Shown: positions 4,476 to 42,179 of the stretch, piece after piece
Layout of the letters: each line of letters starts with the position of its first letter
Position numbering within the stretch: position 1 is the stretch's first letter
Assembly: GCF_049969415.1 (NCBI RefSeq)
Contig: NZ_JBMFOX010000008.1
Coordinates: forward strand, 1 to 45,020
Direction: 5' to 3'
From: Candidatus Hadarchaeum sp.
Lineage (GTDB): Archaea > Hadarchaeota > Hadarchaeia > Hadarchaeales > Hadarchaeaceae
Length of the DNA: 45,020 bases
Notes under the pieces: model-generated
The model's input: only the letters and a program-made list of their open reading frames with translations
Database searches by the model: none
What the model was told of the DNA's origin: nothing
Translations under genes and position numbers: made by a program

Positions 4476-4498
4476 GCAGGCGTTTTAAAGTTCTACAC

Positions 4499-5821: not shown

Positions 5822-5862
5822 ACCCATAGAGCAATCGGTTTAGCAATTCCGCTAAAAATTGG

Positions 5863-7529: not shown

Positions 7530-7575
7530 AAGTTGAAATTGCTATTTCACTACAAGCAACACGGGGGAAAGGATT

Positions 7576-9030
7576 ATGGTTGGTTTGAAAGGCGGACAGC
7601 TCGAGATACTATCTCAAGACGAGGTATGCAAAATTCATCAGAAGACAATGGAAGTTCTGGAAAAGGTTGGCGTCAAAGTGATGGAACCAAATGCTTTAAG
7701 AATTTTAAAGGAAGGCGGCGCGGAGGTGGACTTTAGGACAAATCGGGTTTTCCTTCCAGAGCATTTGGTTAAAGACGCGTTGAAGAAAGCTCCGGGAGAA
7801 TTTACCCTTCATGCCCGAAATCCAAAATATGATGTTAAAATTGAAAAGAAGCGCGTTTATTTCGGCCCAATGATTGGCCGAATTTACATCCTTGATCTTG
7901 ATACCGGGAAAAGGCGCATGACCAATTTAAAGGACGTAGAAGATTTGTGCAAAGTTGCGGACGCGATGGAGACCTACAGATTGATCCACGGCGGCGCCGT
8001 CATGCCCAACATCGACGGCGTGCCGGGAAAGGTCACCCATGTCCTCGGCTATATTGCCAGCGTTAAGAACACCTCAAAAGTGGTCAAAGCGACGGCGCGC
8101 GGCACAAAAAGGGCAAGGGACTGTTTGAAGATGGCCGCCATACTAGCAGGTGGGGAGGAAGAGCTGCGCAAGAAACCGATGATATACACCACCGTGAACC
8201 CGATCAGTCCCCTCCAGCATGCAACCGACATGACCGAGGGACTTCTGGAGTACGCCAAGATGGGACAGCCCGTTGATTTCGGCGTTGAGATTCAGGCCGG
8301 CGCTACTGGCCCCGTTACTTTGGCCGGAGTCCTCGTGCAACAGGGCGCGGAAATATTGAGTGGAGTTACCATCGCTCAACTAGTTAACCCAGGCACCCCA
8401 GTCTTCTACGGCACCTGTTCTACCATCATGGACATGAAACGCGGGCACATTGCTTTGGGCGCGATTGAGGCTGGCATCTTGAACGTGGCATCAGCGCAGA
8501 TGGCGAGGTATTACAACCTGCCCTGTCGTGGTACCGCCGGCGATACCGAGTCCAAGCTAATCGACGTTCAGAACGGTTATGAGCGGGCCATGAACTTGCT
8601 GCTGGCATCTTTGGCCGGCGTAAATTACATTTTTTATCCCGGGACTTTGGAGTCGGCCAGAACCATTAGCTTGGAGCAGTTGATCATCGATGACGAGATC
8701 TGCGGGATGATTTATCGCGTTTTGAAAGGGATCAAGGTCGATGAAGATACTTTGGCCTACGATGTTATCGCTCAAACAGGCCCTGGCGGACACTATTTGG
8801 ACAAAATGCACACGTTAAAGTATCTGATGGAAGAGCAATATTTCCCAAAGATAAGCGACCGGGAGACGCGAGAAAATTGGGAAAAGGCAGGTGCGAAGGA
8901 CCTGTGGCAGGTGGCGCGGGAGAAAGCCAAGGAGATACTCGCGAAGCATGAGCCGGATCCGCTGGATAAAGAGGTTGAGAAGCAACTGATTGAATATGCT
9001 AAAGAGGTGGAGAAACGGGAGTTAAAGTAA
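7576..9030 (+). CDS. Trimethylamine methyltransferase (MttB) superfamily, non-pyrrolysine homolog
   Basis: LSQDEVCKIHQKTMEVLEKVGV, NPISPL, GATGPVTLAG, QLVNPGTP, DMKRG, ARYYNLP, GPGGHYL; no in-frame TAG. Confidence 0.9.
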   Translation: MVGLKGGQLEILSQDEVCKIHQKTMEVLEKVGVKVMEPNALRILKEGGAEVDFRTNRVFLPEHLVKDALKKAPGEFTLHARNPKYDVKIEKKRVYFGPMIGRIYILDLDTGKRRMTNLKDVEDLCKVADAMETYRLIHGGAVMPNIDGVPGKVTHVLGYIASVKNTSKVVKATARGTKRARDCLKMAAILAGGEEELRKKPMIYTTVNPISPLQHATDMTEGLLEYAKMGQPVDFGVEIQAGATGPVTLAGVLVQQGAEILSGVTIAQLVNPGTPVFYGTCSTIMDMKRGHIALGAIEAGILNVASAQMARYYNLPCRGTAGDTESKLIDVQNGYERAMNLLLASLAGVNYIFYPGTLESARTISLEQLIIDDEICGMIYRVLKGIKVDEDTLAYDVIAQTGPGGHYLDKMHTLKYLMEEQYFPKISDRETRENWEKAGAKDLWQVAREKAKEILAKHEPDPLDKEVEKQLIEYAKEVEKRELK

Positions 9031-9115
9031 TGAGAACATTAGCACTGTGAAAGCTTGAACTGAGCCATACAAACATCTAAATATAACCTAGATGATTGGA
9101 TTAAAGGTGATATTC

Positions 9116-10150
9116 GTGTCCAAAAAAGTTGAATTTCTATATCTGAGTCAAGAGGACGTTAGGGCCGCTGGTGGCCTCGACATGAAGATGACAATGGAAG
9201 CCATTGAAAGGGCCTTTAAACTCCTCAACGCTGGTCAGGTGATAATCCCTGACAAAATTGTTATGGAGCTTCCCCCGGGAGAAAGGGAACGAGGACGGAT
9301 AAACGGCCTCGCGGCATACATCGGCGGGGATTGGGAAGTGGCCGGAATAAAGTGGATTCCCAGTTTCCCGAAAAATCCATTCCAACGCGGATTGCCTAGG
9401 GCCAGCGCACTTATTATCCTCAACGATACCCAAACGGGGTTGCCCTTAGTAGTAATGGATGGCACCATACCGAGCGCAATGAGGACTGGAGCCGTCGGCG
9501 GCGTAGGGGCAAAATATCTGGCTAGAAAAAACTCCGAAGTGCTGTGTTTGATAGGTCTGGGAGTTCAGGCAAGAACCCAAGCTATGGCGATAAAAGAGGC
9601 TTTGCCATCACTAAAGAAAATCCGTGGTTATGATAAGGCAGTGGAACGGGGGGTTGAGGGAGCTAAGGAGATTGAGAAATTAACGGGAGTTCCTACTAAA
9701 TATTTCAGCACGCCGGAGGAAGCCGTCATGGGTGCCGACGTTATCGTCACCGCGACGGTAGCCAATGAACCTATCGTCAAGGAAAAATGGGTTAAGGATG
9801 GAAGTCTTTTCATCCACATTGGTTCCTATGTTGAGGAAGAGTATGAAGTGGTTCTGAACTCGGACAAAATAGTGGTGGATGACTGGCACGTGGTAAAACA
9901 CCGCAAAACACCAGTTCTGGCAAGAATGTATGATGAAAAACTGATCACCGACAGCGACATCTACGCTAACCTTGATGAGATCGTGGCCGGGAAAAAACCC
10001 GGCAGGGAAAGCGACGATGAAAGGATCTTCTTTGCCCCGATAGGAATGGCACACGAAGACGTTGCCGTGGCCTCCATGATATACGAAAGGGCCAAGCGCG
10101 AGGGAATCGGAAAAACTTTGACGCTCTGGAATGAACCAATCTGGATTTAG
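9116..10150 (+). CDS. Ornithine cyclodeaminase/mu-crystallin family protein (SbnB-like)
   Basis: GIKWIPSFPKN, RASALIILND..TGLP, SAMRTGA, IGLGVQA, ADVIVTAT, GMAHEDVA; GTG start after AAGGTGA. Confidence 0.88.
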   Translation: MSKKVEFLYLSQEDVRAAGGLDMKMTMEAIERAFKLLNAGQVIIPDKIVMELPPGERERGRINGLAAYIGGDWEVAGIKWIPSFPKNPFQRGLPRASALIILNDTQTGLPLVVMDGTIPSAMRTGAVGGVGAKYLARKNSEVLCLIGLGVQARTQAMAIKEALPSLKKIRGYDKAVERGVEGAKEIEKLTGVPTKYFSTPEEAVMGADVIVTATVANEPIVKEKWVKDGSLFIHIGSYVEEEYEVVLNSDKIVVDDWHVVKHRKTPVLARMYDEKLITDSDIYANLDEIVAGKKPGRESDDERIFFAPIGMAHEDVAVASMIYERAKREGIGKTLTLWNEPIWI

Positions 10151-10208
10151 GCCGATTTCGTCGTCGGCTGTGAGTCTTAATTATGTTTGTCTTACTTTTT
10201 AGACCTTT

Positions 10209-11388
10209 TGTTAAGTAAACTTTCTAAGTTAACATTTGAAAGCAAATCACGATCCCGCGACCGACCAACTATCCCATTTTGCCACGCAATGACAATTGAA
10301 GCTGTGTTCAGCGTCGATTTTCTTCACCGACAGAGATCCTTTTTCATCGACGATGAAGCCTCCGGCTGGCGATGCGGCCAAGAGTTTGGGCGGTATCTGC
10401 GGCCGTCAGATCAACGCGGGATACAGCTTCGCTGGCTGGGTGTCTATGCCGCGGTGGAACCTGTGGCAGTTGTACCATCTTCGGTACTCACTAATTCTGG
10501 CCAGCCACTCCGGGAACTTCCTCAGCAGGTTGACGAACTCCTCGGCGACGTTCCTGATGGTCCGCTCGACCTTCCCCTTGTCCTGCGGGTAGTACGGGTG
10601 CGCGAACAGCGGTTCTATCCCTTTTTCCCTACACCATCGCTTCCATCGTTCCTTGAACTGGGCACCGCGGTCGGTGAGGATCTTCCCCGGTTTCCTTCGA
10701 AGCTCTTCCAGGAGCCCCGTGAGTTCATCGGTCGTCGGCTCGTGGTCGAATTGCTCGCAGACCAGCAGATAGCGGCTGAAATCGTCCACGCAGACGGGGA
10801 ACCAGTACTTCCGTCCTTGGAGCCAAAAGGGCCCCTTCACGTCCAGCTGCCACAGCTCGTCCGGCTTTTTGGCCCTGAAGAACTTCCAGGCCTTCTCCTC
10901 CCGGCCGTACCCGTTGAGCCCAAAGCGATTCAGCACCCCGTTTATCGCCGTCCTAGACAGGCGGATCCCCTGAACGTGGGGCTTGAGCTTCCTCCTCATG
11001 AACCCGGGGAGGTTTATCAGTGCCTGCCGTATCCGAGCGGTTCCCCAGCCGAACGTGGTGCGGAGCGCCACGATCGATGCCTCGACCTTTTTGGTTATTT
11101 TGCCCTTCCTCGGCTTCCTAGGCAGATCCCTGAAGCTCTCCCTGCCGCGGTGTTTGGCGCGCTTGCACCACTTCCATGCTGTTTGCCTGCCCACCCCGAA
11201 AGCCTCGGCCGCATCTTTTTTAGCCATGCCCTGCCTAATTACTTTCACCATCTGGCGGCGCTGGTCAGTATTGAGTCGGGGCATCGTGAGGTGTCTCGGT
11301 CCAGCCTCCGCCGGGTGGTCTTAGCTTTTGATGATAGGAATATTGGATTAAAATAGTAAAAGTGTTAACTTGGAAACTTTACTTAACA
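10209..11388 (-). mobile_element. IS481-family insertion sequence, 1180 bp
   Basis: 26-bp TIRs beginning TGT: 10209-10234 TGTTAAGTAAACTTTCTAAGTTAACA versus the reverse complement of 11363-11388 TGTTAAGTAAAGTTTCCAAGTTAACA (24/26), enclosing one DDE transposase. Confidence 0.88.
10406..11284 (-). CDS. IS481-family transposase (HTH + rve integrase core)
   Basis: N-terminal HTH (AAEAFGVGRQTAWKW), WGTARI, WQLDVKG, VDDFSR, ILTDRGAQF, PQDKGKVER (DDE). Confidence 0.92.
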   Translation of the reverse strand: MPRLNTDQRRQMVKVIRQGMAKKDAAEAFGVGRQTAWKWCKRAKHRGRESFRDLPRKPRKGKITKKVEASIVALRTTFGWGTARIRQALINLPGFMRRKLKPHVQGIRLSRTAINGVLNRFGLNGYGREEKAWKFFRAKKPDELWQLDVKGPFWLQGRKYWFPVCVDDFSRYLLVCEQFDHEPTTDELTGLLEELRRKPGKILTDRGAQFKERWKRWCREKGIEPLFAHPYYPQDKGKVERTIRNVAEEFVNLLRKFPEWLARISEYRRWYNCHRFHRGIDTQPAKLYPALI

Positions 11389-13487: not shown

Positions 13488-14205
13488 AAAATTGGGAACA
13501 GAGATAAAAGAGCTACTCGGCCTGAGATGGTCGCCCGTGGGAGTTCGATTAATGTCGACTGAGGGCGAAGTCTCGAATGCCGAAGCATTGGTCAAGCACC
13601 GATATTGTCAGGCGGTGATGAAGGCGAGAGAGGGACACAACATCCTGCTCAAAAAGGATGAACTCTCGTGCCCGGCAGCATCGTCGTCGTTCGGTTTTCG
13701 GGAATTAACGGATAACCTCAAGTCGGGCAAAGCCCTCGTTGGCTTTGGCATCGTTTCCGGTGAGCGCGTGGGGCAGAAGATGTTTGCCGACATGCCGAGG
13801 CTGCAACCCGGGTTTATCAAACAGATACATCTTTTCCCCTTGGACGGTTTCAACTACGAGCCGGATGTGGTGGTCGTGGAAGACGAGGTGGAAAAGCTTA
13901 TGTGGATTGTTCTGGCATACCTGAACTTGAAAGGGGGCGAACGTGTGCAGGCCTCAACGGCCGTGCTTCAAGCCGCGTGCGTCGATGCCACGGTCATTCC
14001 CTATCTTGAGGACCGGCTGAATTACTCCTTCGGTTGCTACGGATGCAGGGACGCAACGAACATCGGGACAAACGAGGCGATCCTTGGTTTCCCGGGTTGC
14101 CTTTTGCCATCAATCGTTGAAAATTTAAGAAATCTATCGAAGAAAGCAATCCCCATGTCCCGCTCAAAGCAGGCTTGGTCTGCCCTTCAAAGGAGCCGCA
14201 GCTAG
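13471..14205 (+). CDS. DUF169 family Cys-rich protein
   Basis: LGLRWSPVGV, RYCQAV, LSCPAA, EPDVVVV, AACVDATVIPY, SFGCYGCRDAT. Confidence 0.8.
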   Translation: MTSKFRKLGTEIKELLGLRWSPVGVRLMSTEGEVSNAEALVKHRYCQAVMKAREGHNILLKKDELSCPAASSSFGFRELTDNLKSGKALVGFGIVSGERVGQKMFADMPRLQPGFIKQIHLFPLDGFNYEPDVVVVEDEVEKLMWIVLAYLNLKGGERVQASTAVLQAACVDATVIPYLEDRLNYSFGCYGCRDATNIGTNEAILGFPGCLLPSIVENLRNLSKKAIPMSRSKQAWSALQRSRS

Positions 14206-14340
14206 GCGGTGATGGTGAAGGCCGCGTTGGTATATCTGCCGGCTCCGGGAGCGGGAGTGAGGGAGTCTCCCAAGATCTCTACACAGCTGCTGGGCCTTGC
14301 GTGCTTTATCTTGATGCTGGAGGAGCGGATGACGCTGGAA

Positions 14341-14604
14341 AATGTAGATTTACACATTCCATTAACAAATTCCATGATTATGGTTTTTTCAACAGTGACT
14401 GTGACGACATATCCTTTGCCCAAAAAACATTCAATTCTAAGTTTCGCTATAACTTACTCTTCTGGCATGAAAAATTCACCCATCGCGATGGGAATCACAA
14501 TCACATCTTTTGGTAAAGTGACTGCTCTTCCAATAGCAGTTAGTTATATATTTCAGATAGCCACCGCTATAGCATTTTATATGCTGTTTAGAAAAAAAAG
14601 GTGA
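14341..14604 (+). pseudogene. C-terminal remnant of a bile acid:Na+ symporter/Acr3-superfamily transporter
   Basis: AITYSSGMKNSPIAMGI..FG..ALPIAVSYIFQI resembles the final SBF helices (GxxN motif). The N-terminal part is missing and the sequence turns AT-rich near 14340. Confidence 0.5.
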
Positions 14605-14610
14605 GAAAAC

Positions 14611-15998
14611 ATGAAGGTGTTGTTGGTTTCGCCGCCAACGGAAAGCGCTCTAAGAAGAATCATGGGCACAACCGGACCCCCTCTTGGCCTAGCATATGTT
14701 GCTTCAATGGTGAAGGATGAACATGATGTGAAAATTATCGACTCAATTGCGGAAGGATATGGGAAGGAAGATGTGGCCACTATAATAAGAAATTTTGACC
14801 CCGACGTAGTTGGCTTAACGGCAACAACTTCGATGATGCCAGATGCCTACGAAATAGCAAAGATCGCCAAGGAGGTAAATGAAAACGTGAAGATTATTTT
14901 AGGCGGCCCCCACGCAACTTTTATGCCAGAGAGGACCATGCAAGAATGCCCTTACATAGATTTTATTGTAAGGGGAGAAGGGGAACACGCATTTAAAGAG
15001 TTGGTTGATGCCCTTGAAAGGGATGGGGATCTCAAGGGCATAAACGGCTTAACTTTCAAAAGAAATGGAAAAATAATAAATAATCCTCCAAGAAAGCTGA
15101 TAAAAAATATTGATGAAATTCCAATTCCATCTTATGACCTACTCCCCATGAAAAAATATAAGCTAAACAAAATTGAATTTGGGACAATAATTACAAGTAG
15201 GGGTTGCCCGTTCAACTGCACGTTCTGCTCTTCGTCCTTGCAATTCGGGAAGAAATGGCGGGCGCACAGTGTGGAGAGGACAATAGATGAACTATCCTTG
15301 CTTAGGGATGAATACGGTAAAAAGGAAATAGAATTTTTGGATGATACATTTACTTTATTAAAACCAAGAGCTATTGCGATAGCCAATAAAATAAGGGAAG
15401 AGAGGTTGGATATTTCGTGGGCTGCGTCTTCAAGGGTGGATACATTTTCTACGGAAATTGCAAACGCGATAAAAAATGGAGGAGCCCACACAGTATATTT
15501 CGGTATAGAATCAGGTTCTCAAAAAACACTTGATTTCATCGGGAAGGGATTACGCTGGAGGAATCAGAGCTGGCCGTGAAAAATGCCAAGAAAGCGGGAT
15601 TGCATGCCTTAGGTTCTTTCGTGATAGGCTTTCCAGAGGAAAGTAATGAAGATGTTAACAAAACAATAAAATTTTCGAGAAAAGTTGGAGTTGACTTTGC
15701 CCAATTTGCCATTGCTACTCCTTACCCGGGAACAAAATTGTGGCTGTACGCATTGAAAGAAAAATTGCTTCTCACGATGAACTGGAGAAAATTCACAACA
15801 TTGGAACCTGTGATGAAATTAAAGTATTTCACGACATCTCAGATAGCAAAAGTTTTGAAATTGGCCTACGTGAAATTTTATCTTCGTCCAAAAACGCTGG
15901 CAAGGGATCTAATAGAGGATAAAGGGCTCATATTTAGAAAGGCGGTGCGCTACCTGGCCACCGAGTTATTTCAAGGGAAATGGCATGGCGTAAAATGA
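14611..15998 (+). pseudogene. B12-binding (class B) radical SAM protein split by a 1-nt frameshift near 15547
   Basis: PPLGLAY, GGPHAT, VRGEGE, TSRGCPFNCTFC, DDTF, GIESGSQ. Continues in the -1 frame as ITLEESELAVKNAKKAG..GSFVIGFPEE..TPYPGT. Confidence 0.85.
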
Positions 15999-16188
15999 TA
16001 ACTACAACGACGATGGATATTAAGGGCCGTGATCGGCGATCCGGTTACAAGATACCAAACACCAAGCTATTGCCGATTTTTAAAGATTAATCAACACACC
16101 ATCCCCCGCCAACGTCGCGCGCGAAATAAAAAGCTTCGGAAGGTTAAGCGTGCTTGGAATACAGGAGGCCCACTGATCCTCCGAAAGG

Positions 16189-33056: not shown

Positions 33057-33533
33057 ATGTTGGAATCACAGATTTTAATCACGCTTGTCGTCGTGGCCGC
33101 CATCATCATCTTCTGGAGAGGGGTGGATAGCCTTTTCCGAAGAAAACTGAGGAGAATGGTGGGACACCAGCGGCTTTCTAACTCGCTGTCAATAATCTTC
33201 GCCGTCGTGGTCCTGATTTACCTTCTCAACGTCTGGGGGGTAATCCAGGCAATCGTGGAGTTGACCTTGACCTTCGGCACCATCAGCGCCGTCCTGCTCT
33301 GGGCAATGAAGGATGTGTGGATCTCGAATATCTTCGCTGGGATCTCGCTGATAGGGGACAGGAACATCAGGATAGGGACGGAGGTTGAGATTGGAGGGCA
33401 GAGGGGAAAGATTGTGGAGATCTCGCTGACCGTCACCAAGCTCAGGTCTCCCGACGGCAGATTGATCATCGTTCCCAACCAAGTCTTCCGGGCTTCCGTC
33501 GTCGTGATAAACACCAAGAAAAAACAACGGTGA
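33057..33533 (+). CDS. Small MscS-family mechanosensitive channel protein
   Basis: 3 TM segments, then SNIFAGI..IRIG.EVEI.G..GKI.EI.L..TKL...DG.LI.VPN. Confidence 0.8.
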   Translation: MLESQILITLVVVAAIIIFWRGVDSLFRRKLRRMVGHQRLSNSLSIIFAVVVLIYLLNVWGVIQAIVELTLTFGTISAVLLWAMKDVWISNIFAGISLIGDRNIRIGTEVEIGGQRGKIVEISLTVTKLRSPDGRLIIVPNQVFRASVVVINTKKKQR

Positions 33534-33539
33534 ACCGCG

Positions 33540-34220
33540 GTGTTTCCCCTCAAGGACGAAAATCCCTCCTCAAGCTTCCCCTACGTCAACACGGCACTTA
33601 TCGTGGTCAACCTAGCCGTGTTCATCATCACGCTGCTCAACGGGACATTCGAGAGCACCATTGAGGCCTATGGAATGAGGCCGGTCGAGGTGCTCGCGGG
33701 TAAAAGGCTTGAAACGCTATTCATCTCTTTGTTCCTGCACGGCGGCGTCCTCCACATCCTGGGCAACATGCTCTACCTTTACATCTTCGGGGACAACGTC
33801 GAGGATGCGCTGGGCCACGGCAAATATCTGGCCTTTTATCTGGGAACCGGGATAATCGCCAGCCTCATTCACGCCCTGAGCGACCCGGTCTCAGATATCC
33901 CCACCATCGGCGCCTCAGGTGCTATCTCCGGGGTGCTGGGGGCCTATCTCGTGCTCTATCCTCGGGCCCGGGTCTACACGGCGGTGGGGATCTATCTCTT
34001 CTGGAGAATAATCATGATCCCGGCGATATTTTTCCTCGGGTTCTGGTTCCTGCTCCAGCTGCTCTCGGCCTCGGTGACCTGGCTGACCGGGATTTCGGAG
34101 GGGGTCGCCTACTGGGCGCACATCGGCGGGTTCATCGTCGGCGCCCTGCTGATCCTGCCGACCCGAGCCAAGCTCAGGAAGCGCCGGAAGTCCAGCCACT
34201 ACCTCTACGACGGGTTTTGA
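33540..34220 (+). CDS. Rhomboid intramembrane serine protease
   Basis: FLHGG..HILGNM, FGDNVED, GASGAISG (Ser), AYWAHIGG (His). Confidence 0.93.
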   Translation: MFPLKDENPSSSFPYVNTALIVVNLAVFIITLLNGTFESTIEAYGMRPVEVLAGKRLETLFISLFLHGGVLHILGNMLYLYIFGDNVEDALGHGKYLAFYLGTGIIASLIHALSDPVSDIPTIGASGAISGVLGAYLVLYPRARVYTAVGIYLFWRIIMIPAIFFLGFWFLLQLLSASVTWLTGISEGVAYWAHIGGFIVGALLILPTRAKLRKRRKSSHYLYDGF

Positions 34221-34247: not shown

Positions 34248-34262
34248 GAAAAGGGTTTATAA
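34248..34262 (+). promoter_or_regulatory. BRE/TATA promoter of KaiC-like gene
   Basis: GAAAAGGG-TTTATAA about 30 nt upstream of ATG 34293. Confidence 0.5.
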
Positions 34263-34292: not shown

Positions 34293-34988
34293 ATGCTCCG
34301 CGACACAGTGAAAGGGCTGGACAACGTCCTGAAGAACGATATACCTCGAGGTTACGTGGTGCTGGTGACCGGTGGAGTGGGATCGATGAAATCCAGCTTC
34401 GTCTACAATGTTCTCTCCAACTACCTGACCAAACACAGGGACGAGTTCGGCGTCTACGTGACGCTCGAGGAGTCCAGGGAAAGCCACCTGAGAAACATGG
34501 AAAGCTTGGGGATCAAGAAACCGGAGCACCTCCAGATCTTTGACTACCAGGACATCCGCAAGGAGTGGCGGGAGGAGGAGCCGTCGCTGGATATGGTGAG
34601 CATAACTGAGGACGTGATCAAGTTCTACAAGGAGGAGATGAAGGACAAGTTCACCGTCTTCTGCCTTGACTCCCTGAACGCCCTGCAGACGCTGGCGAAG
34701 ACGGACAACCTGCGCCGGGAGAGCTATCACTTCTTCAATCTGCTCCGGGACAGCGGCCTGACCTCATTCATCATCCAGGAGATCCAGGCCGTCGGGGAAG
34801 GGCGAAGGCACATCCCGGAGTCCTACCTCGCCGACGGAGTTATCGAACTGGGCGTGATCGAAACTCCGGAGCTGGTAACCCGGTACATCCAGATCAGGAA
34901 GATGCGCGCCTGCAGGCATTCCATGAAGAAACACCAGCTGATGGTCAACGAGGGCGGGCTGGAAGTTCTCGGGCCGGTTTACGAGTAG
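34293..34988 (+). CDS. Single-domain KaiC-like/RAD55-family ATPase with variant Walker A
   Basis: GLD.VL..IPRG.VVLVTGGVGSMKSS, YVTLEES, LDSL, ESYLADGVIEL, IQIRKMR..H. Confidence 0.88.
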   Translation: MLRDTVKGLDNVLKNDIPRGYVVLVTGGVGSMKSSFVYNVLSNYLTKHRDEFGVYVTLEESRESHLRNMESLGIKKPEHLQIFDYQDIRKEWREEEPSLDMVSITEDVIKFYKEEMKDKFTVFCLDSLNALQTLAKTDNLRRESYHFFNLLRDSGLTSFIIQEIQAVGEGRRHIPESYLADGVIELGVIETPELVTRYIQIRKMRACRHSMKKHQLMVNEGGLEVLGPVYE

Positions 34989-35119
34989 TCCCTGCTAAGG
35001 GTGGGTTTTGAAAAATCTCGACATGGGGAGCATCGCCTTTTTGCCCAATTTTGTCTTATAAAGGGAAATTTTCGGAAACTGAAACATTACCTTAAATAAC
35101 GCCCGTCTTTCCTGAGGGT

Positions 35120-36739
35120 ATGGTCTTTATGGGGGAAGGCGAGGATCTTTGGAAGGAGCATTGCTCCTTCCTAGAAAAACCATTTTCCGAGCAGTTGGAG
35201 ATCAATCTCCAAAGCCGAGATGAGTACTTTAAAAGATGGCAAAAAACGAAAATGGCTGCCAAGCTGTGCCCGAACGGCGTAAAGGGCTTTGAAGAAGTAC
35301 CGCTCACGACCTACGAGGACTATACCATCTTGCACGATTTTGGCGAAAAAGTCGAGCAGCTCAGCAGAACCATTCCTAGGGAGAAAGAAGAACTATGGTG
35401 GGACTACTATCTCCGGATCGGCAGGATGGCTGCTCCGATGCTAGACGGGTGGTTGCCCGAGGAGTTTGACTTTTGCGCCAAGACTTCTGGGAGCAGCGGT
35501 AAAAGCAAGTGGCTCGCCTACGGGAGAAGCTTCCGCAGGGAATGGGACAGTTTAACTTCATACCTAATAATAATGTGTAGCGAAAAATCCGGAGACACCA
35601 ATCTTCGCAAGGGAGATACCTACCTGAACATTGTAGCTCCTGCACCCTATGCCTCGGGATTTCAAATGCATCCTATCGAAAAACTGCTTAGGCCGATACC
35701 GCCGAGAAGCGTCACCGATAACATTAGCAACATGCGCAAGAAAATGTGGATAATCCTCAAGGAAATCGAGAAGGGGGCCAGAATCGATATCGCCGGAGGA
35801 ATTGCTTCCACCTTCTACATGATGGCGCGATACTTCACCAAGCCAGATGAATTTTTCAAGGACTATTACCAATCGATGAACTTCGGGATAACAAAATTCC
35901 TGCTCTTTTTGAAATATCTTCAGTGTAAAATGAAGGGAAAAAAATACAACAGGGCAAGAGAGATACTGCCTGTGAAGGGAATCGGCTTGGGTGGATACGA
36001 CACCAGACTGTACTTAGATAGTATAAAAGAAGAATTTGGAGTTATCCCCACCAACGCCTACGGTTGCACGGAATTCGGTATGGTGATGTACGGACATTCC
36101 GACAGAAAACTGGATTTGATTCCTGACCTGCGTAACATGTACTTCGAGTTTTTAACCGAAACCGGGGAGATAAAAAGGATTGATGAGTTGAAAAAGGGAA
36201 GAATATACGAACTCGTCGGCACTCCGTTCGGAACCATGCTGATGAGATACAGGATCGGGGACAAGTTCAGGCTTGTCGACTTCAGGGACGATGGGTTGCC
36301 CATCTTTGAATTTGAGGGCAGGGAAAACGAGGTAATCGATATCTATGGGTATTTCAGGATCTCGCAGGCCGTAGCGGTCAAAGCCCTCTGTGAGGCCGGC
36401 CTTAAGGAGACCGACAGATGGTGCCTAACAAAGGTTACCGACCCGAAGGAACGCTTGCTCCTGCTGATGGAACCGGAGTGGGACTACCCGGAAGAAAAAA
36501 CCGCGGAGCTTATCTTCAACGCCCTTTATCGGATTAACCCAGAATTTAAAAACTACGTGGATGATTTCGGGATCAAAACATCGCAGGAGCTGGTCGAGGT
36601 CCGGTACCTCAAGAAAGGCGCTTTTATGAGATATAGCATGAAAAAGATGAAGGAAGGGGTTCCAATTGGAAATATAAAGCCGCCCAAAATAGTCGTTAGC
36701 GATAAAAGCGATGCCATCGAAGTGCTCAGGAGCGTGTAA
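35120..36739 (+). CDS. GH3-family acyl-adenylating enzyme (ANL superfamily)
   Basis: VPLTTYEDY, KTSGSSGKSK (P-loop), YGCTEFG, YFEF, MRYRIGD, FEGRE, C-terminal GNIKPPK. Confidence 0.75.
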   Translation: MVFMGEGEDLWKEHCSFLEKPFSEQLEINLQSRDEYFKRWQKTKMAAKLCPNGVKGFEEVPLTTYEDYTILHDFGEKVEQLSRTIPREKEELWWDYYLRIGRMAAPMLDGWLPEEFDFCAKTSGSSGKSKWLAYGRSFRREWDSLTSYLIIMCSEKSGDTNLRKGDTYLNIVAPAPYASGFQMHPIEKLLRPIPPRSVTDNISNMRKKMWIILKEIEKGARIDIAGGIASTFYMMARYFTKPDEFFKDYYQSMNFGITKFLLFLKYLQCKMKGKKYNRAREILPVKGIGLGGYDTRLYLDSIKEEFGVIPTNAYGCTEFGMVMYGHSDRKLDLIPDLRNMYFEFLTETGEIKRIDELKKGRIYELVGTPFGTMLMRYRIGDKFRLVDFRDDGLPIFEFEGRENEVIDIYGYFRISQAVAVKALCEAGLKETDRWCLTKVTDPKERLLLLMEPEWDYPEEKTAELIFNALYRINPEFKNYVDDFGIKTSQELVEVRYLKKGAFMRYSMKKMKEGVPIGNIKPPKIVVSDKSDAIEVLRSV

Positions 36740-36741
36740 GC

Positions 36742-37476
36742 GTGGCTAACTGGTACTTCTTCCCTATCACATTGCAGTATTTAATTGGTGGCGGACTTAT
36801 CTTCGCGATTTCATTTTTGCTAATCCGGAGAAATTCTAAAAGCTGGGTTTACTGGCCTTTTTTCCTTTACGGCCTCTTCGCCGGCCTGTGGATGCTGATG
36901 GCCTTTTTCCACAGAAACGCGCCTAATGCCGAGCTATCCGCCGATTTCATCACGCTGGGCGCAGTCTTCGGCTTCACTTTTCCAGCGTTTCTGCTAATCA
37001 CCTTTCTTATGCTCAAAAAACAAACTTGGAAAAACTTGCTGTCGTTAATTCCAGCGCTAATCATGGGTGGGATAACACTTTCCATTTTTCCCTTTAAGGT
37101 CCTGTGGACCGACTTTGGCTGGACCTATAACTACGCCTCCTCTTGGTACTTCGCTGCCGCCGTATTTTTAAATCTGGCCTACATCGCGGCGAACCTGATT
37201 GTCGGTGTTAACTTGGTCAGAACCGCCCCAACTGCTCTGCTAAGAAAAAAATATAAGCTCCTGTTGATCAGCTACTTTGTTTTTTATGTGGTAGCCATCG
37301 CGATCACCAACATGCTTCTGGTCCGTTACACCAACTACCCGCCCTTCGGTGGAATCATCAGTACCCTCGCCTTCCTTACCATTGCATGGGCCCTCTCACT
37401 TAGAATTGAGCCGGGTCAAAGGGAAAATCTGAACGCAGCAAGCAAGGACGATGGAAACCATGGCAAGGATGTTTAG
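36742..37476 (+). CDS. Stand-alone 7-TM membrane sensor (HisKA_7TM-like N-terminal domain) without kinase
   Basis: Seven hydrophobic segments, RRNSKS..WPF..LW, periplasmic WTDFGW loop, RKKYKLLLI before TM6; no H-box or catalytic domain. Confidence 0.6.
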   Translation: MANWYFFPITLQYLIGGGLIFAISFLLIRRNSKSWVYWPFFLYGLFAGLWMLMAFFHRNAPNAELSADFITLGAVFGFTFPAFLLITFLMLKKQTWKNLLSLIPALIMGGITLSIFPFKVLWTDFGWTYNYASSWYFAAAVFLNLAYIAANLIVGVNLVRTAPTALLRKKYKLLLISYFVFYVVAIAITNMLLVRYTNYPPFGGIISTLAFLTIAWALSLRIEPGQRENLNAASKDDGNHGKDV

Positions 37477-37515
37477 CCCAAGTCCAGAAACCGGCATCCG
37501 GCTGGGGGGAGTGAT

Positions 37516-38406
37516 GTGGAAAACTACGTTTCGGAACTACCATCCATTTCGGCGCTGAAAAAATTTCTGCATGAACTATTGCCCTCCCTGCCCGGCCAAG
37601 AACTGGGTGAGAACGTCATCGAATTCCAGAATTTTATTAAAAGCATTGGGCTTGGAAACATCATATACTTGGACGAAAGAGGAAACGTCTCACTGAAATC
37701 CTCCGCATTGTCTTCGCTAAACATGCCCGAAACCGTGAGAAAAATTCTCGTTTATCTCGGAAACCAAATGGAACCCAATCTTTCCGATCCTTACAGAGAA
37801 CTGTTCATTAAAAACTATCTCGAATTCAGGTCAGGTTCACAGCCCGCCGCTGAGATCTGGCTGAATCAAATGCTGCATGACCACGGAGGTCTCCTCTCAG
37901 CCTACGGAATCATCGAGAAGCTACCGAAAGATACCAAACTACCGCCAATTTTTCAGCTACTGCGCCCTGGATCAATCCATTTCCTGAAAGAGGAAAAACC
38001 AGAACAAGGCTACGCAATGATCAGAGAGGCAATCAAATATGCATTCAAGGGATTCTGCGTGAGCAAACTTGAACCGAACAAGGTGAGATATAGATACGGG
38101 GTGAAGAATGCCCAAATCATCTGGCTGACCTTCAACAAAACCAAGGAAAAATCTATATCACCTGACGATCTGGACGGACTGAAATCCTTAATCTCAAAAG
38201 CGGACATCGGGTCGGTGATTCTATTTGACTGCCTCAACGAGATAAAACTGGTCAACGGTTTTAAGGAAGCACTTGAGCTTTTCAAGGAGCTGAAGAAGCT
38301 CTGCAGAGAAGGCAGATTGATCCTGATCGTCTCAGTTGACCCGAAGAAGCTCGCCGAGAAACAGCTTCTGGCGCTGGAGCAAGCCATGGAGGTTAACGAG
38401 AAATGA
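37516..38406 (+). CDS. DUF835-domain protein (inactivated KaiC-like domain) with N-terminal helical domain
   Basis: C-terminal GFCVSK..P..IIWLT..SISPDDL..VILFDCLNEIKLVNGF..L..L..LIVSVDP..L..QL..LE. Confidence 0.75.
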   Translation: MENYVSELPSISALKKFLHELLPSLPGQELGENVIEFQNFIKSIGLGNIIYLDERGNVSLKSSALSSLNMPETVRKILVYLGNQMEPNLSDPYRELFIKNYLEFRSGSQPAAEIWLNQMLHDHGGLLSAYGIIEKLPKDTKLPPIFQLLRPGSIHFLKEEKPEQGYAMIREAIKYAFKGFCVSKLEPNKVRYRYGVKNAQIIWLTFNKTKEKSISPDDLDGLKSLISKADIGSVILFDCLNEIKLVNGFKEALELFKELKKLCREGRLILIVSVDPKKLAEKQLLALEQAMEVNEK

Positions 38407-40268
38407 GCCTGAGCGAATTTTTTATCCTGCTTCTTGGCGTTGTTCTTCTGGGCTTGGTGCTGGTCTTTGTAATCTACTCGACCGAAAACATGAGAAGATT
38501 TAGATATTCTGCGGCCTTAATGGTGACGGCCGTAGGAGCAATCTGCTTTTTACTTTCAATGGTATCAACGGCCTTAGCCATTTTCTTTGTTGCTGAAGTA
38601 ACTGCCCACACCGCAGCTATTTTCTGGGTCTTCGGAAGTGCTCTAGTTCTGACGGGCCAATTTTGGCGGGTTGCGGTTTTTAGGAGAATCTATGGTTCCG
38701 TAAGAGCCGTGATAAATCTCTCTAGCTCCAAGTGGTCCTTAGCCGGTACCATTGCGCTAATCCTCGGAATTCCCGTTTACTTCATCTTCTTTTACCAATC
38801 AATTGCCGAGGGATTCAGCTGGTACAGCGTCGGAAGCGAGGCATTATGGGTATTTGTCTTTGCCTGCTTGATTATCGCTGAAAGGAAGCTGTTCCAAGTT
38901 TCGAGCGCTCCGCATCCGATACTGCGGGAAACTACGATTCAGAACGAAGCTCAAACTTTAGTGGCTTATTCAAACTTAACGAACAGGTTTCTGGCCCACC
39001 TCATACCCGTCATCGGCGTCTCGGGAGTTGAAGATGCCCTCACCAGCTGCGTTGAGGAACATCCCATCCTGTTTGGGGATAAGATTATTGAGGGCGGGCT
39101 GCTCAACGTGGACCAACTGATAAAAAACAGCAGACGCATTCACGAGAGCGAGAGACCCCGAGAACTCCTCAGCGCTTTTTCTGATCTAAACACGACCATA
39201 ATAGACCTCTACGCCGCGCTCACGTCGCCGGTCCAGGCGTATCACATGGTGGGCACCGAGGCGGAAATTTATCGGGACGATGCAGCTCTCTGGAATGCTG
39301 GTGTTCCTCTGGGCAAATATAGCGAGGCCGTTTACGAGAGGGAGCTAATGCTCGGACTGCCTGAGGGAATCGCGGACGCCGGCAAGGTGAATAACTTCGC
39401 TTACATCCTGTTCAAACGATATCTGGAACAGCTGCTGAGCAAATGTAAAAAATCAACGAGAATCGACTTGAAAAGGAAGCTGGATGAACTGGCCAAGAAA
39501 AATCAGATGGTTGGGCTGGTTGATATCTCTGACGAGGGGAAGATTGACCTGGGCAACCTTTACCAACACCTGTCAAAACTGAAATTCAAAGAGGGCATGC
39601 GTGAAATCGTGAAGACGTTCTCCGATGTCTTCAACGCCTGCTACGAGGCTGCCAAGAAAGATCTGGGTCTGAAAAAGGCTTCGGAGACGGCCACGGAGAT
39701 ACTCTCCGAGCTGCTGCGCAGATACGGCGGTTTCCTGCAGCACTACGGCATCATCGAAGCCATTCCGGAGGGAGTTCAAATCCCGGGCACCTATCTCCCC
39801 TTGGTAACAGGGAAGTGCTACCTCGTGGAAGGGAGGAGCCCAAGACATGCCTTCAAGATGTTCGCCGATCTGGTGCGGTTCGGCAACCCCGGACTTATCA
39901 TAACCACCTCCCACCCGACACACATCAGAAAGGAATACAACCTTCCGGAAAGAATCACCATCCTCTGGCTCTCAAAGGTGGAGGTGGAGTACGCAATTTC
40001 CCCATCGAACCTCGGAATCATCCGGGACCGCATCTCGGCCTTCGTCACCAAGAAGGAGAACGCGGTGGTCATGCTCGAAGGTCTGGAATACCTGATCACC
40101 ACCAACGGCTTCGATCTGACGCTGAAGCTGATGCACGACATCAGGGAGATAACCATGGTCAACCGCGCCCGGCTCATCGTGCCGGTGGCGCCGCTGACCC
40201 TTGAACCCAAACAGTTGGAGATGTTACGGCGCTTTATGGAGGTGATTGCGGTGGAGGGAAAAGCATGA
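38403..40268 (+). CDS. Membrane protein with about 5 TM, two helical repeats and C-terminal DUF835 domain
   Basis: N-terminal TM helices; C-terminal GLIITTSHP..ILWLSK..ISPSNL..VVMLEGLEYLITTNGF..KLMHDIRE..LIVPV.P..LE.KQLEML. Confidence 0.8.
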   Translation: MSLSEFFILLLGVVLLGLVLVFVIYSTENMRRFRYSAALMVTAVGAICFLLSMVSTALAIFFVAEVTAHTAAIFWVFGSALVLTGQFWRVAVFRRIYGSVRAVINLSSSKWSLAGTIALILGIPVYFIFFYQSIAEGFSWYSVGSEALWVFVFACLIIAERKLFQVSSAPHPILRETTIQNEAQTLVAYSNLTNRFLAHLIPVIGVSGVEDALTSCVEEHPILFGDKIIEGGLLNVDQLIKNSRRIHESERPRELLSAFSDLNTTIIDLYAALTSPVQAYHMVGTEAEIYRDDAALWNAGVPLGKYSEAVYERELMLGLPEGIADAGKVNNFAYILFKRYLEQLLSKCKKSTRIDLKRKLDELAKKNQMVGLVDISDEGKIDLGNLYQHLSKLKFKEGMREIVKTFSDVFNACYEAAKKDLGLKKASETATEILSELLRRYGGFLQHYGIIEAIPEGVQIPGTYLPLVTGKCYLVEGRSPRHAFKMFADLVRFGNPGLIITTSHPTHIRKEYNLPERITILWLSKVEVEYAISPSNLGIIRDRISAFVTKKENAVVMLEGLEYLITTNGFDLTLKLMHDIREITMVNRARLIVPVAPLTLEPKQLEMLRRFMEVIAVEGKA

Positions 40269-40368
40269 TGAAATTCTTAACCGGATTAAACGCGGTAAAC
40301 ACGCGGGGTTTAAAAAGGAAGCATTTATTCCCGCGCCCGAGCAAGCAGGAGCAAGGTGGTGGTAAGAG

Positions 40369-41337
40369 ATGGTGACGTCTAGGGACTCGACCACGATCCC
40401 GCTCGATAAGAAGGTACTCATGATCAACGAAATCCTCATCAGCGACTGTTCGCTGCTGCTCTACAGCTCTGGAGTGAACGTCTGGCAATCCTTCGGCTCC
40501 TTCATCGACAGCGGGCTGGCCAACGGGGAGACCTGTCTTTATGCGTACGACGAATCGAGCAACAAGTTGCAACTGGAAACCATCTTCGGGGAATACCTTT
40601 CCAGCGGCAGGCTCCTGAGGTTCCCGCTGGGCAGAGGCTATCTTCCCAAGGAGATCGAAGAACTGGGAGAAAAACTGAAGGAGCTGTGCGCGAAGTCTCG
40701 CTCGGAAAAATGCCCGGCCCGAGTTCTGGTCGACTTCGGTGGCCTTATCACTAGGCACAGCTTCGACAAGGCCTTCGGTCTTCTGAAGGAGGTGATGGCA
40801 AGGAAGGAGGAATCGTTCACGCTGCCGCAGGAGAGGAAAAAACAGCCGGTTTTGCGGACCGCGATAGTGGCCTTCAACCTGGAATCACTGAATGAGGGGG
40901 AAATCAAGGCTTTGCTGGAAACGAGTCAAAACGTGATGATCTCCACGAACGACGGGACCACCACCCTGGCGCTGAACTTCAGGTACCGCCAGAGGATCCC
41001 GGAGCTCGAGCTGGCCCCGAAGGAATCGCTGGAGCATTTCGTCAAGCGACACCTAGAGACCATCGTCCTGTCAATGCTGACCGAGCATCCGATGTGCGGT
41101 TATGACGTCATCAAGACGATCTACCAGCGTTATTACACCTCGCTGAGCCAAGGGACCGTCTACTCCCTGCTCTACTCGATGGAGGCCCGGGGACTGGTGA
41201 CCGTGATGAAAACAGAATCACAGCGGTCCAAGCTCTACGTCCTGACGAAAAGGGGTCGGGAGCTGGCGGAGAGCCGGATAAAGGAGTTCATCACCGCCCA
41301 GCGCTATCTGCTCGAGTCAATTCAAAAGCCCGGGTAA
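40369..41337 (+). CDS. MEDS-like sensory domain fused to PadR-family wHTH regulator
   Basis: N-terminal LLY..FIDSGLANGETCLY..RVLVDF (MEDS-like); C-terminal PMCGYDVIK..SQGTVYSLLYSMEARGLV..KLYVLTKRG. Confidence 0.72.
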   Translation: MVTSRDSTTIPLDKKVLMINEILISDCSLLLYSSGVNVWQSFGSFIDSGLANGETCLYAYDESSNKLQLETIFGEYLSSGRLLRFPLGRGYLPKEIEELGEKLKELCAKSRSEKCPARVLVDFGGLITRHSFDKAFGLLKEVMARKEESFTLPQERKKQPVLRTAIVAFNLESLNEGEIKALLETSQNVMISTNDGTTTLALNFRYRQRIPELELAPKESLEHFVKRHLETIVLSMLTEHPMCGYDVIKTIYQRYYTSLSQGTVYSLLYSMEARGLVTVMKTESQRSKLYVLTKRGRELAESRIKEFITAQRYLLESIQKPG

Positions 41338-41346
41338 CCGACGCCC

Positions 41347-41682
41347 TCAGCCGCTGGACTCGAGGAAATCGAGGACCATCCTCTTGGCGCTGATGTATCC
41401 CTCCAGCAGCCCTCGGATCTTCTCCTCCATCCCCTCAGCCGTCCGGTACCTCTTTATCTTTCCGCCCCGCTCGAACTCAACTAGCCCTCTCCGCTTCAGC
41501 TCGTGCAGTAGCGGATAGACCGTCCCCGGGCTGAGCAGCAGGCCGAACTTCTCGTGAATGGTCCTGATGATATCGGTTCCGCACATCGGCTGTTTCATCA
41601 ACAGCGCCAAGACCAGATACTCCAGCTCGCCCCGGACCGGGCTTGGCATCAACCCTGGAGCTCCTTCCATCACCCCCACCAC
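41347..41682 (-). CDS. PadR-family transcriptional regulator
   Basis: LEYLVLALL..PMCGTDII..SPGTVYPLLHELKRRGLV..KRY. Confidence 0.88.
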   Translation of the reverse strand: MVGVMEGAPGLMPSPVRGELEYLVLALLMKQPMCGTDIIRTIHEKFGLLLSPGTVYPLLHELKRRGLVEFERGGKIKRYRTAEGMEEKIRGLLEGYISAKRMVLDFLESSG

Positions 41683-41792
41683 AATCCTCCGTTAACGTGT
41701 TCTTATATATCGATTTTCGTGTCGAGATTTGATAGATTTTCCATAAGAAAACCCATTTTTAAAACCGAGGTTCCCGCTCACTGGGTGCCCGG

Positions 41793-42179
41793 GTGACCAC
41801 TGGTAGCGCCGAGACATGGACAAGAGCGCTGGAGCTGCTGAGGTCAATCAGGATCGACCGGGAGAGGCTGTCCGAGGTGGAAAAGATGGTAAATCAGCTG
41901 TTGATGGAGCTGGAAAATGCCTCGGGGCGGGGGGCGCTTTACAACCCGCGCGATGTCCACGAACAGCTGCAGGTCTTGGTCAGGTTGAGCTGCGCCATCG
42001 AACGACTCAGCCGGGAAATGGAGGAGCTGGAGAGAATTGAGAAGAAAATGCAGCTCGTGGAAAAGAGGATTGAGATGGACCTGAGGACTATGGAACAGAT
42101 CAGGGAGCAGTTGAAGAAAAAGCTGCAGATCGTGGTCAAGGAGGAAAAGTCTGAGTTAAAAACTGGTTCTCAAACATAA
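41793..42179 (+). CDS. Hypothetical coiled-coil protein
   Basis: 128-aa E/K/L-rich heptad pattern, host-like codon usage; TTTTAAAA upstream. Confidence 0.55.
   Translation: MTTGSAETWTRALELLRSIRIDRERLSEVEKMVNQLLMELENASGRGALYNPRDVHEQLQVLVRLSCAIERLSREMEELERIEKKMQLVEKRIEMDLRTMEQIREQLKKKLQIVVKEEKSELKTGSQT

Follow-up and report, generated by a model that had tools for sequence, protein, structure and literature searches.

A GH3-type enzyme and a seven-helix sensor as the conserved core of a putative archaeal signalling cassette

Background

What might a relative of the plant GH3 enzymes, which conjugate acids with amino acids, be doing next to the gene of a membrane sensor in an archaeon? The question is raised by a gene cluster in a 45,020-nucleotide stretch of Candidatus Hadarchaeum sp. 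(assembly GCF_049969415.1, contig NZ_JBMFOX010000008.1; "the window" below means this whole stretch), in which a KaiC-like ATPase, a GH3-type enzyme, a seven-transmembrane-helix (7TM) protein, two proteins with DUF835 domains (DUF835a and DUF835b) and a transcription factor with MEDS-like and PadR domains are encoded one after another (Table 1). Here we argue from comparative analysis that the enzyme and the 7TM protein, a sensor domain of the HisKA_7TM type, are the conserved core of what looks like a real and undescribed signalling cassette, in which DUF835 and a KaiC-like protein stand where other genomes have a histidine kinase and a receiver.

The components of the cluster and the idea of KaiC-centred signalling are already known (PMC5847659). 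Archaeal signalling of this kind, with DUF835 and MEDS as inactivated KaiC domains, goes back to Makarova, Galperin and Koonin (2017), as cited in PMC5847659, where a table lists both domains as 'iKaiC'. In the passages of PMC5847659 and PMC6944256 consulted, no ligand or partner enzyme is named for the HisKA_7TM domain, and the term 'GH3' does not occur in the available text of the archaeal two-component census. We found no literature linking a GH3 enzyme to HisKA_7TM or to DUF835/KaiC; the 2017 KaiC-hub paper and its supplements lay outside this search, and a prior mention is possible.

Results and discussion

The enzyme gene and the 7TM gene stay together

A pattern-plus-tblastn scan, taking one genome per species and relying on a single peptide pattern, yielded 37 loci, in which open reading frames (ORFs) were called and searched with the proteins of the window (loci, genomes and contigs carry numbers prefixed L, G and C). 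In 32 of them the enzyme gene has a 7TM homolog directly next to it; in the remaining five (L012, L021, L024, L030 and L041) the contig is cut short on the side expected to carry this homolog, and in the genome of L012 (G007) a 7TM gene is found at the start of another contig. The pair is also present in one locus beyond the 37 (L008 of G050). The two genes often overlap or lie 2 bp apart, and their pairing is kept through changes of orientation, output module and transcription factor.

Because the scan depended on one peptide pattern, two unbiased genome samples were added. Among 61 related genomes the enzyme was detected in nine, and the 7TM protein in the same nine and in one marginal hit of 56 residues (E 8.9e-4). 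Among 201 genomes of the class to which G061 belongs, a full-length enzyme (E<=1.6e-238) is encoded in five, with a 7TM gene adjoining it in all five. Taking both samples together, every genome with a full-length enzyme has a 7TM gene (14/14), adjacent in 13. The second sample also contains 19 genomes with only distant paralogs of about 480 aa, which match profile positions ~264-510; here adjacency is seen in none of the 19, there is no 7TM match in 17, and the other two (G184 and G208) have only a weak 7TM-like gene, which lies on another contig.

The relation is asymmetric, in that sensors without the enzyme exist. Close ones are a second copy in G012 (C98, L048) and a 998-aa 7TM-kinase accompanied by receiver genes in G181 (C3, L049), while G184 and G208 encode distant 7TM-DUF835 proteins; no enzyme fragment was found beside the solo sensors of these four genomes, which may be likened to the orphan receptors of autoinducer systems. 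As judged from the gene neighbourhoods, the enzyme and the 7TM sensor are thus the conserved core of the cassette, and the partnership assumed in a preliminary description of this locus is indeed conserved, both across the loci and in the two samples. Since orientation, transmitter, partner and transcription factor all vary and the enzyme nevertheless keeps to the sensor, its role would be on the input side.

The enzyme belongs to the GH3 type

The window enzyme matches the GH3_M model (PF23571) with 28.6 bits against a cut-off of 23.6, and no transmembrane (TM) segment is predicted in it. Its family comprises 286 proteins at E<=0.001 among 8000 candidates scored, and the source names of the homologs, where given, are archaeal. 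In an alignment of 19 family sequences we recognised the three nucleotide motifs of GH3 enzymes as defined in PMC12493201, including the SSGTSxGxxK-like P-loop: TSGSSGKSKW at residues 122-131 (G124, K130 and W131 invariant), YGCTE, of the YGSSE type, at 314-318 (Y314 invariant, E318 in at least 90% of the sequences) and RYRIGD, of the YRxGD type, at 376-381 (R376, Y377 and D381 invariant). Near the C-terminus lies GNIKPPK (G-x-I-K-P-P-K in the family), which contains the invariant K520 and aligns with GQYKTPR of GH3.12 in the HMMER alignment.

A search of PDB sequences with the family profile retrieved ten distinct plant GH3 chains (GH3.12, JAR1, GH3.5, GH3.6, GH3.8, GH3.15 and VvGH3-1; E 1.3e-10 to 1.7e-5), the sole other row being the A domain of a nonribosomal peptide synthetase at E 0.94; PaaK gave no match at E<=1. 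We therefore assign the enzyme, by its sequence relationships, to the GH3 type and not to ordinary PaaK-type CoA ligases, in agreement with the preliminary description; two JGI records label homologs 'PaaK-like'. The significant alignment with GH3 proteins covers residues 310-528 only, and the N-terminal half is divergent. Because the three nucleotide motifs and the C-terminal lysine are conserved and the PDB matches are GH3 enzymes, the protein appears competent. Most likely it uses ATP to activate a carboxylic acid, which is then coupled to an amine, probably that of an amino acid. OlsH, a bacterial GH3-like enzyme and the one characterised prokaryotic example in the literature searched, joins fatty acids to ornithine to yield N-acyl-ornithine (PMC12493201).

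A HisKA_7TM-type sensor, split in the window

The 7TM protein has seven hydrophobic segments and no Pfam hit of its own, and its family was recognised through homologs. That of L023 matches HisKA_7TM (PF16927) with 29.5 bits (cut-off 28.6), and in a Pfam scan of 27 sensors adjoining the enzyme, the window's included, five match HisKA_7TM at E<=0.01 and five match DUF7090. A 525-aa database relative combines DUF835 with HisKA_7TM, PF16927 is precomputed on the homolog P0181, and the protein-atlas lead for the 7TM protein (score 0.92) is a cluster with HisKA_7TM on 10% of its members. An exhaustive search with the 7TM profile gave 604 cluster representatives at E<=0.001, 76 of them at E<=1e-30. 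The domain is N-terminal in nearly all of the rows listed and begins at residue 1-15 in most of the 150 representatives listed (later rows look cut), and the proteins carrying it fall into length classes near 220-260, 515-535, 690-770 and 985 residues.

Family-wide counts of lysine and arginine per loop follow a positive-inside pattern and predict an N-out/C-in topology. The motifs HRxAP, FGW(S/T)Y and PPxGG then lie in, or at the edge of, the predicted outside loops, and of the 26 positions with at least 80% conservation 10 are found in these three loops or at their edges, including all three that are invariant; the LRKKY motif falls in a cytoplasmic loop. A complex prediction for the enzyme family with the 7TM domain (score 0.00, mark 0.32) speaks neither for nor against a contact.

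In the genus of the window this sensor (sensor 1) is split. In the window itself the 7TM and DUF835a genes share a reading frame, with TAG and 39 nt between them, and DUF835a, which has a GTG start behind a GGGGGAG stretch, consists of a juxtamembrane domain (residues ~1-150) and the DUF835 domain (160-289). In L014 the two halves overlap in different frames, and in L015, L016, L017 and L019 sensor 1 is a single gene of 510-531 aa. By this comparison the 7TM protein and DUF835a together make up one sensor, whose two halves are encoded by a single gene in other Hadarchaeota. A similar split is seen in L033, between a 266-aa 7TM gene and a 475-aa kinase gene, and the sensor of L008 looks split too. 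Internal stops in G050, the genome of L008, were considered as joint decay of enzyme and 7TM protein; this was rejected, the ORF maps fitting an intact 506-aa enzyme and a split sensor.

DUF835 and KaiC in the place of kinase and receiver

Eleven of the 27 neighbouring sensors carry HisKA and HATPase_c domains and seven carry DUF835, and the two kinds share the same sensor part. The fused 7TM-DUF835 protein of L019 and the 7TM-kinase of L025 align at residues 8-373 (377 residues, 28% identity, E 1e-41), that is, over the 7TM domain and a juxtamembrane domain of ~140 residues, and are divergent beyond. The second membrane sensor of the cluster (DUF835b, sensor 2), which comprises some 5-6 TM segments, a cytoplasmic domain of ~300 aa (158-458; no usable hit in the protein atlas) and DUF835 at 483-611, behaves likewise: its middle domain shows 34% identity (E 3e-49) with the N-terminal region of a HisKA-HATPase kinase in L016, which holds the same position in the cluster, as does its counterpart in L017. 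On these alignments sensor 2 shows the same exchange of kinase and DUF835 as sensor 1.

The loci fall into five arrangement classes. Class A (the window, L011, L013, L014 and L019) has a rhomboid gene, KaiC-like gene, enzyme, sensor 1, sensor 2 of the DUF835 type and MEDS-PadR, with a small PadR gene in the window, L011 and L014 and not in L019. Class A' (L015-L017) has a receiver, the enzyme, a 7TM-DUF835 protein, a UbiA prenyltransferase, a small ORF, sensor 2 of the kinase type and a KaiC-like gene. Class B (L018, L034-L037, L039 and L040) has a winged helix-turn-helix (wHTH) regulator, with a V4R domain in L018, a KaiC-like gene, the enzyme and a sensor of the 7TM-DUF835 type. In class C (eight loci) a 7TM-kinase gene is divergent from that of the enzyme, beyond which follow two small ORFs, a receiver and a wHTH protein, and in class D (seven loci) the enzyme is followed by a 7TM-kinase.

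Partner genes were counted in a local census with hidden Markov models, the window standing outside the receiver scan. A KaiC-like gene is present in all 14 DUF835-type loci with the needed flank and in none of 13 kinase-type loci, apart from one marginal hit (L044, 7.7e-5). A receiver gene accompanies the divergent kinase-type arrangement of class C in 11/11 loci, cut ones included, and class A' in 3/3; it is absent from all 11 class A and B loci scanned. By the neighbourhoods compared, DUF835 and KaiC thus stand where kinase and receiver stand elsewhere. In a quick maximum-likelihood tree of 32 enzymes, unrooted and hence not orienting the switches, the 16 kinase-type rows, all Bathyarchaeia, group together in one starred clade, so that one switch suffices for sensor 1; that of sensor 2 within Hadarchaeota would be a second.

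Within the literature examined, this exchange of modules is the strongest support we see for DUF835 as a transmitter, and the relay role proposed for it in the preliminary description gains accordingly from its replacing HisKA-HATPase on the same sensor in the company of KaiC-like genes. The further claim that the system is kinase-free does not survive in general form: because relatives, close and distant, carry histidine kinases and receivers in their cassettes, the cassette is not intrinsically kinase-free, and the window lineage has its DUF835/KaiC version. Since one and the same sensor is combined either with a kinase or with DUF835 and KaiC, depending on the genome, the cassette offers a concrete test bed for the KaiC-hub hypothesis of archaeal signalling.

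Several details of these arrangements were recorded. On the enzyme tree the proteins of L035 and L036, from bins labelled Thaumarchaeota and Brockarchaeota, are nearest neighbours with branches of 0.05-0.06, which may reflect recent transfer or binning. The UbiA-family gene lies between the two sensors in L016 (8190-9062) and L017 (8639-9610), which may hint that the substrate is aromatic or prenylated. In class B the wHTH gene overlaps the start of the KaiC-like gene (L018 6815-7501, L039 8610-9287, L036 8570-9199), and the regulator of L018 is of the AsnC type, its V4R domain being a small-molecule-binding one. The two small ORFs between enzyme and receiver in L046 (11619-12316; ~130 and 101 aa) have no Pfam match, and size-matched ORFs occupy that place in other class C loci.

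A proposed mechanism

Our preferred reading, to which we give a little less than an even chance, is that of a small-molecule signalling cassette with an invariant core of GH3-type enzyme and HisKA_7TM-type sensor, in which the sensor responds to a ligand that the enzyme produces or, with lower probability, removes. We infer what the ligand is, how the proteins contact one another, which genes are targeted and what chemistry the enzyme performs. A cytoplasmic GH3-type enzyme would use ATP to conjugate an acid with an amine, probably an amino acid. The conjugate, probably lipophilic, would leave the cell or partition into the membrane and be read at the outer face of the neighbouring 7TM sensor. 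In the lineage of the window the split sensor, composed of the 7TM protein and the juxtamembrane-DUF835 protein, would signal without phosphotransfer, its degenerate RecA/KaiC-like DUF835 domain passing the signal to the KaiC-like ATPase; the second membrane sensor has a DUF835 of its own. The MEDS-like domain would tie the PadR DNA-binding domain into this RecA-like set and so change transcription.

A wider version of this idea is rather doubtful: a hormone-like or quorum-sensing circuit in several archaeal phyla, with a GH3-made acyl-amino-acid signal, a dedicated 7TM receptor and output through either a kinase or DUF835, KaiC and MEDS in succession, DUF835/KaiC being a third kind of transmitter-receiver pair.

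A number of observations weigh against the preferred reading. The chemistry is proposed from the sequence of the enzyme; as this is cytoplasmic and the conserved face of the sensor is predicted outside, export of the product or its partition into the membrane must be assumed. The data are compatible alike with the product as ligand, with the substrate as ligand and with the enzyme as a regulated effector. The Thermoplasmata locus L021 ends at the stop codon of the enzyme, and no 7TM gene was found in its genome. Many of the loci are related to one another, and on the enzyme tree the kinase forms make up a single clade, so that the independent events behind the pattern are few. The receiver is absent within the fetched flanks of six of the seven class D loci, where the kinase gene is co-directional with the enzyme, and the sole one detected is distant and lies beside another kinase.

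The relay raises difficulties of its own. The Walker A motif of the window KaiC-like protein is deviant, GGVGSMKS with methionine for the last glycine (GGVGTLKS in L019), where cassette proteins of other phyla or other type have GGPGTGKT; the Walker B aspartate (D126) and the glutamate of the EES motif (E60) are invariant in an alignment with 11 cassette KaiC-like proteins. With such a Walker A motif the window protein may hydrolyse ATP weakly or not at all. The protein has one domain and is not circadian KaiC proper, which has two tandem RecA-like domains in ~500 aa, and the NCBIfam circadian KaiC models score 88 against a cut-off of 408 and 46 against 546. The KaiC-like protein of L039 matches another paralog of the window genome (4.9e-15) slightly better than the one of the cluster (3.6e-13). 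By this match the window's protein is not its genome's best counterpart of class B KaiC-like proteins, and a common origin of the cassette KaiC-like genes, which we considered, is unsupported.

DUF835 itself is matched clearly in DUF835a and DUF835b (64.2 and 102.5 bits, cut-off 33.1), and inspection of sequences and alignments finds no P-loop GxxxxGK[ST] in either domain. NCBIfam models hit DUF835a weakly, ArlH at 6.1e-5 (residues 222-293) and FlaH at 2.6e-3. With the cassette KaiC profile, hhalign gives a probability of 0.4% for DUF835 and 4.6% for MEDS-N, the DUF835 and MEDS-N profiles being small. The kinship of DUF835 and MEDS with KaiC would then be drawn from the ArlH and FlaH hits and from PMC5847659. 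Of their description as inactivated KaiC domains, the loss of the P-loop is borne out for DUF835; the profile comparisons with KaiC are not significant. MEDS (PF14417) stays below its cut-off on the window's MEDS-like-PadR protein (24.0 bits against 29.8), reaches 28.1 bits on the L019 ortholog and is precomputed on 9 of 58 homologs. PadR, in turn, is matched by this protein and by the small PadR protein at 49.0 and 38.3 bits (cut-off 27). The MEDS-like-PadR gene holds the same position in L011, L014 and L019, and the small PadR protein has orthologs in L011 and L014.

Alternative explanations

The alternative that survives best, though unlikely in our estimation, makes the enzyme a regulated effector: the 7TM protein would read the state of the membrane or envelope, or an acid outside, and switch on an enzyme whose job is an amino-lipid-like conjugate or the detoxification or assimilation of an acid, much as a sensor kinase may stand beside a lipid enzyme. 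OlsH, alone characterised among prokaryotic GH3-like enzymes, makes a membrane lipid precursor (PMC12493201); enzyme and sensor are divergent in eight loci and have a regulatory spacer in common there; the enzyme has a conserved TATA-like box of its own in the window lineage; and the UbiA prenyltransferase gene lies inside the cassette in L016 and L017, with a size-matched ORF (family unchecked) at that place in L015. However, an effector would not be expected to keep to the sensor domain while transcription factors and transmitters change, most loci have the enzyme gene co-transcribed upstream of the sensor gene, with 2-bp gaps or overlaps, rather than separately promoted, and a patchy distribution (9 of 61 and 5 of 201 genomes) is unlike core membrane homeostasis.

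It is less probable still that the enzyme is a co-sensor or modifier of the sensor, either binding its cytoplasmic side to report on a cytoplasmic acid, as a trigger enzyme, or acylating or adenylating a signalling protein as feedback, for which methylation in chemotaxis would be the analogue. The transfer of acyl groups to amino groups is the established chemistry of GH3 enzymes, and a protein could offer such a group. Strict one-to-one adjacency, the frequent start/stop overlap of the two genes and the conserved cytoplasmic LRKKY loop fit this proposal as well. Against it speak the sensors that have no enzyme, the common divergent and separately transcribed arrangement and the location of the most conserved sensor positions on the predicted outside, and we know of no GH3 enzyme that acts on a protein.

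That the adjacency has no functional meaning and reflects inherited gene order in a loose collection of regulators is scarcely credible, for although many loci come from related Bathyarchaeia and Hadarchaeota and the enzyme tree is mirrored in the arrangement classes, enzyme and 7TM gene remain paired in several archaeal phyla (by record titles), in both orientations and with different partners, and presence and absence match in the two genome samples.

Comparison with known systems

The signalling reading can be set beside several systems. The cassette is like the KaiC network in combining a single-domain KaiC-like ATPase with neighbouring DUF835 and MEDS-like proteins, inputs at the membrane and helix-turn-helix outputs, and unlike it in tying a GH3 enzyme to one particular 7TM input and in exchanging DUF835/KaiC for HisKA-HATPase and receiver on the same sensor. 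With the plant GH3 enzymes (JAR1, GH3.12/PBS3 and the IAA-amido synthetases) it shares the family, by profile and motifs, and, as we propose, a logic in which conjugation of an acid with an amino acid sets the level of a receptor ligand; it differs in the divergent N-terminal half of the enzyme and in its receptor. Downstream of GH3 in plants the hormone receptor is an F-box co-receptor, whereas here a 7TM sensor is encoded next door.

In bacteria, autoinducer synthases are encoded beside polytopic membrane sensor kinases, as in CqsA/CqsS, LuxM/LuxN and RpfF/RpfC, the last with the acyl-CoA ligase RpfB. As far as genes alone can tell, the cassette resembles these pairs in that the gene of a putative signal-metabolising enzyme adjoins that of a multi-helix sensor, in its orphan sensors and in its patchy distribution; unlike them it has an enzyme of a different family, archaeal hosts and, in the window lineage, no kinase or receiver. 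OlsH shares with the cassette enzyme the GH3-like family, whose members join fatty acids to an amino acid outside plants, and the three nucleotide motifs, but it works in a lipid pathway with an O-acyltransferase, and no sensor partner is reported for it in the available text (PMC12493201). The survey given there concerns bacteria, and in that text 'Archaea' occurs only as lacking such lipids. Finally, the archaeal HisKA_7TM kinases (PF16927; PMC5847659, PMC6944256) have the N-terminal seven-helix domain before a transmitter, and the Bathyarchaeia cassette sensor is such a kinase; the window copy, on the other hand, is a stand-alone gene of 244 aa with its DUF835 transmitter encoded separately.

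The cassette places a large and uncharacterised family of archaeal GH3-like enzymes in a context and supplies a candidate partner for the HisKA_7TM sensor domain. If the enzyme does make the ligand, it would be part of a new chemical language in archaea, paralleling hormone conjugation in plants; quorum sensing is, to our knowledge, barely known in archaea. Should the wider version prove true, which we have called doubtful, DUF835/KaiC would be a genuine third prokaryotic transmitter-receiver pair, interchangeable with kinase and receiver.

The gene cluster and its genome

The genes and their order given in the preliminary description were confirmed by ORF listing, translation and scans with Pfam and NCBIfam (Table 1), and the sequence bears out both the 2-bp gap between the enzyme stop and the 7TM start and the ATGA overlap of the DUF835a and DUF835b genes. 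Of the domains it named, Pfam recognises KaiC, GH3, DUF835 and PadR in the window, while MEDS and the 7TM domain have no match above cut-off there.

Table 1. Genes of the cluster and regulatory features read in the window
Feature	Position	Strand	Remarks
KaiC-like ATPase, single-domain, 231 aa	34293-34988	+	PF06745 8.8e-35
GH3-family adenylating enzyme (acyl acid amido synthetase type), 539 aa	35120-36739	+	PF23571 GH3_M 1.5e-6
7TM sensor domain, HisKA_7TM type, 244 aa	36742-37476	+	seven hydrophobic segments; predicted N-out/C-in; PF16927 via homologs
DUF835a, cytoplasmic half of split sensor 1	37516-38406	+	PF05763 1.4e-17
DUF835b, second membrane sensor	38403-40268	+	PF05763 2.1e-29; TM segments
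MEDS-like-PadR transcription factor	40369-41337	+	PadR 6e-13; MEDS below cut-off
Small PadR-family regulator, convergent with the MEDS-PadR gene	41347-41682	-	PadR 1.3e-9
Small charged helical (coiled-coil-like) protein	41793-42179	+	no Pfam match; position kept in relatives
TATA-like box TTATAAAGG	35056-35064	+	~56 nt ahead of the GH3 start
Imperfect palindrome ATCGATTTT...GATTTGAT beside TATA-like TTATATAT	41709-41733	.	small PadR/small charged-protein spacer

The Pfam scan of the cluster finds no HisKA/HATPase_c kinase and no receiver, as had been noted from the sequence, so that it does not constitute a two-component system. A census of the source genome (1.47 Mb, 138 contigs, 95.25% complete), made with Pfam models or with the window's own proteins as queries, likewise gave 0 matches to HisKA and 0 to Response_reg; two HATPase_c matches, not inspected, lie outside the cluster. 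There are six matches to DUF835, five to the KaiC family and three to MEDS, and the GH3-like enzyme and the 7TM gene occur in a single copy each. Residues E, K, R, L, Q and M make up 60% of the small charged protein, for which phmmer finds matches at the corresponding place in L011, L014 and L019. Rfam gave 0 matches in the window. PADLOC defence models gave 0 hits for seven of the eight cluster proteins, the small PadR protein matching the Csa3 model only (4.3e-7), and an anti-phage defence system, having no PADLOC support, was rejected.

Regulatory DNA and surroundings

Features of this kind were picked out by visual inspection of five close relatives and should be taken only as leads. The block TTATAAAGG is conserved in the spacers between the KaiC-like and enzyme genes of the window, L011, L013, L014 and L019, and is likely the promoter of the unit formed by the enzyme, 7TM, DUF835a and DUF835b genes; similar TATA-like boxes precede the KaiC-like (34254-34262) and MEDS-PadR (40308-40318) genes. 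The palindrome, a candidate operator, was read in the corresponding spacers of the window, L011 and L014. PadR proteins bind operators of the pattern ATGT-N8-ACAT. As an operator of the cluster this pattern was rejected: its one match in the window is far from the cluster, and the result was equalled in 18 of 100 shuffles. An 11-mer is common to 35013-35023 and, in reverse complement, 41720-41730, in the KaiC-GH3 and PadR/small-gene spacers (rough chance expectation 0.007); it is not kept at those places, with one mismatch at most, in L011, L013, L014 and L019 and is again only a lead.

Ahead of the KaiC-like gene, at 33057-34220, are two genes, one of a short MscS-like protein (158 aa) and one of a rhomboid protease. 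L011, L013 and L014 have at that place a rhomboid gene and a size-matched ORF (158-163 aa, family unchecked), the upstream flank of L019 has the rhomboid gene only, and the other cassette classes have neither a rhomboid gene nor an ORF of the MscS size. Elsewhere in the window, a co-directional run at 870-11356, with lower G+C and a strong GC skew, encodes an amidohydrolase, an aldehyde:ferredoxin oxidoreductase, a DHODH-like protein with Fe-S domains, an ADP-forming acyl-CoA synthetase, an ornithine cyclodeaminase and an MttB-family methyltransferase of 484 aa without an in-frame stop. The lowest G+C of the window (0.426) is found at 14001-16000, around the gene of a B12-binding radical SAM protein (14611-15579).

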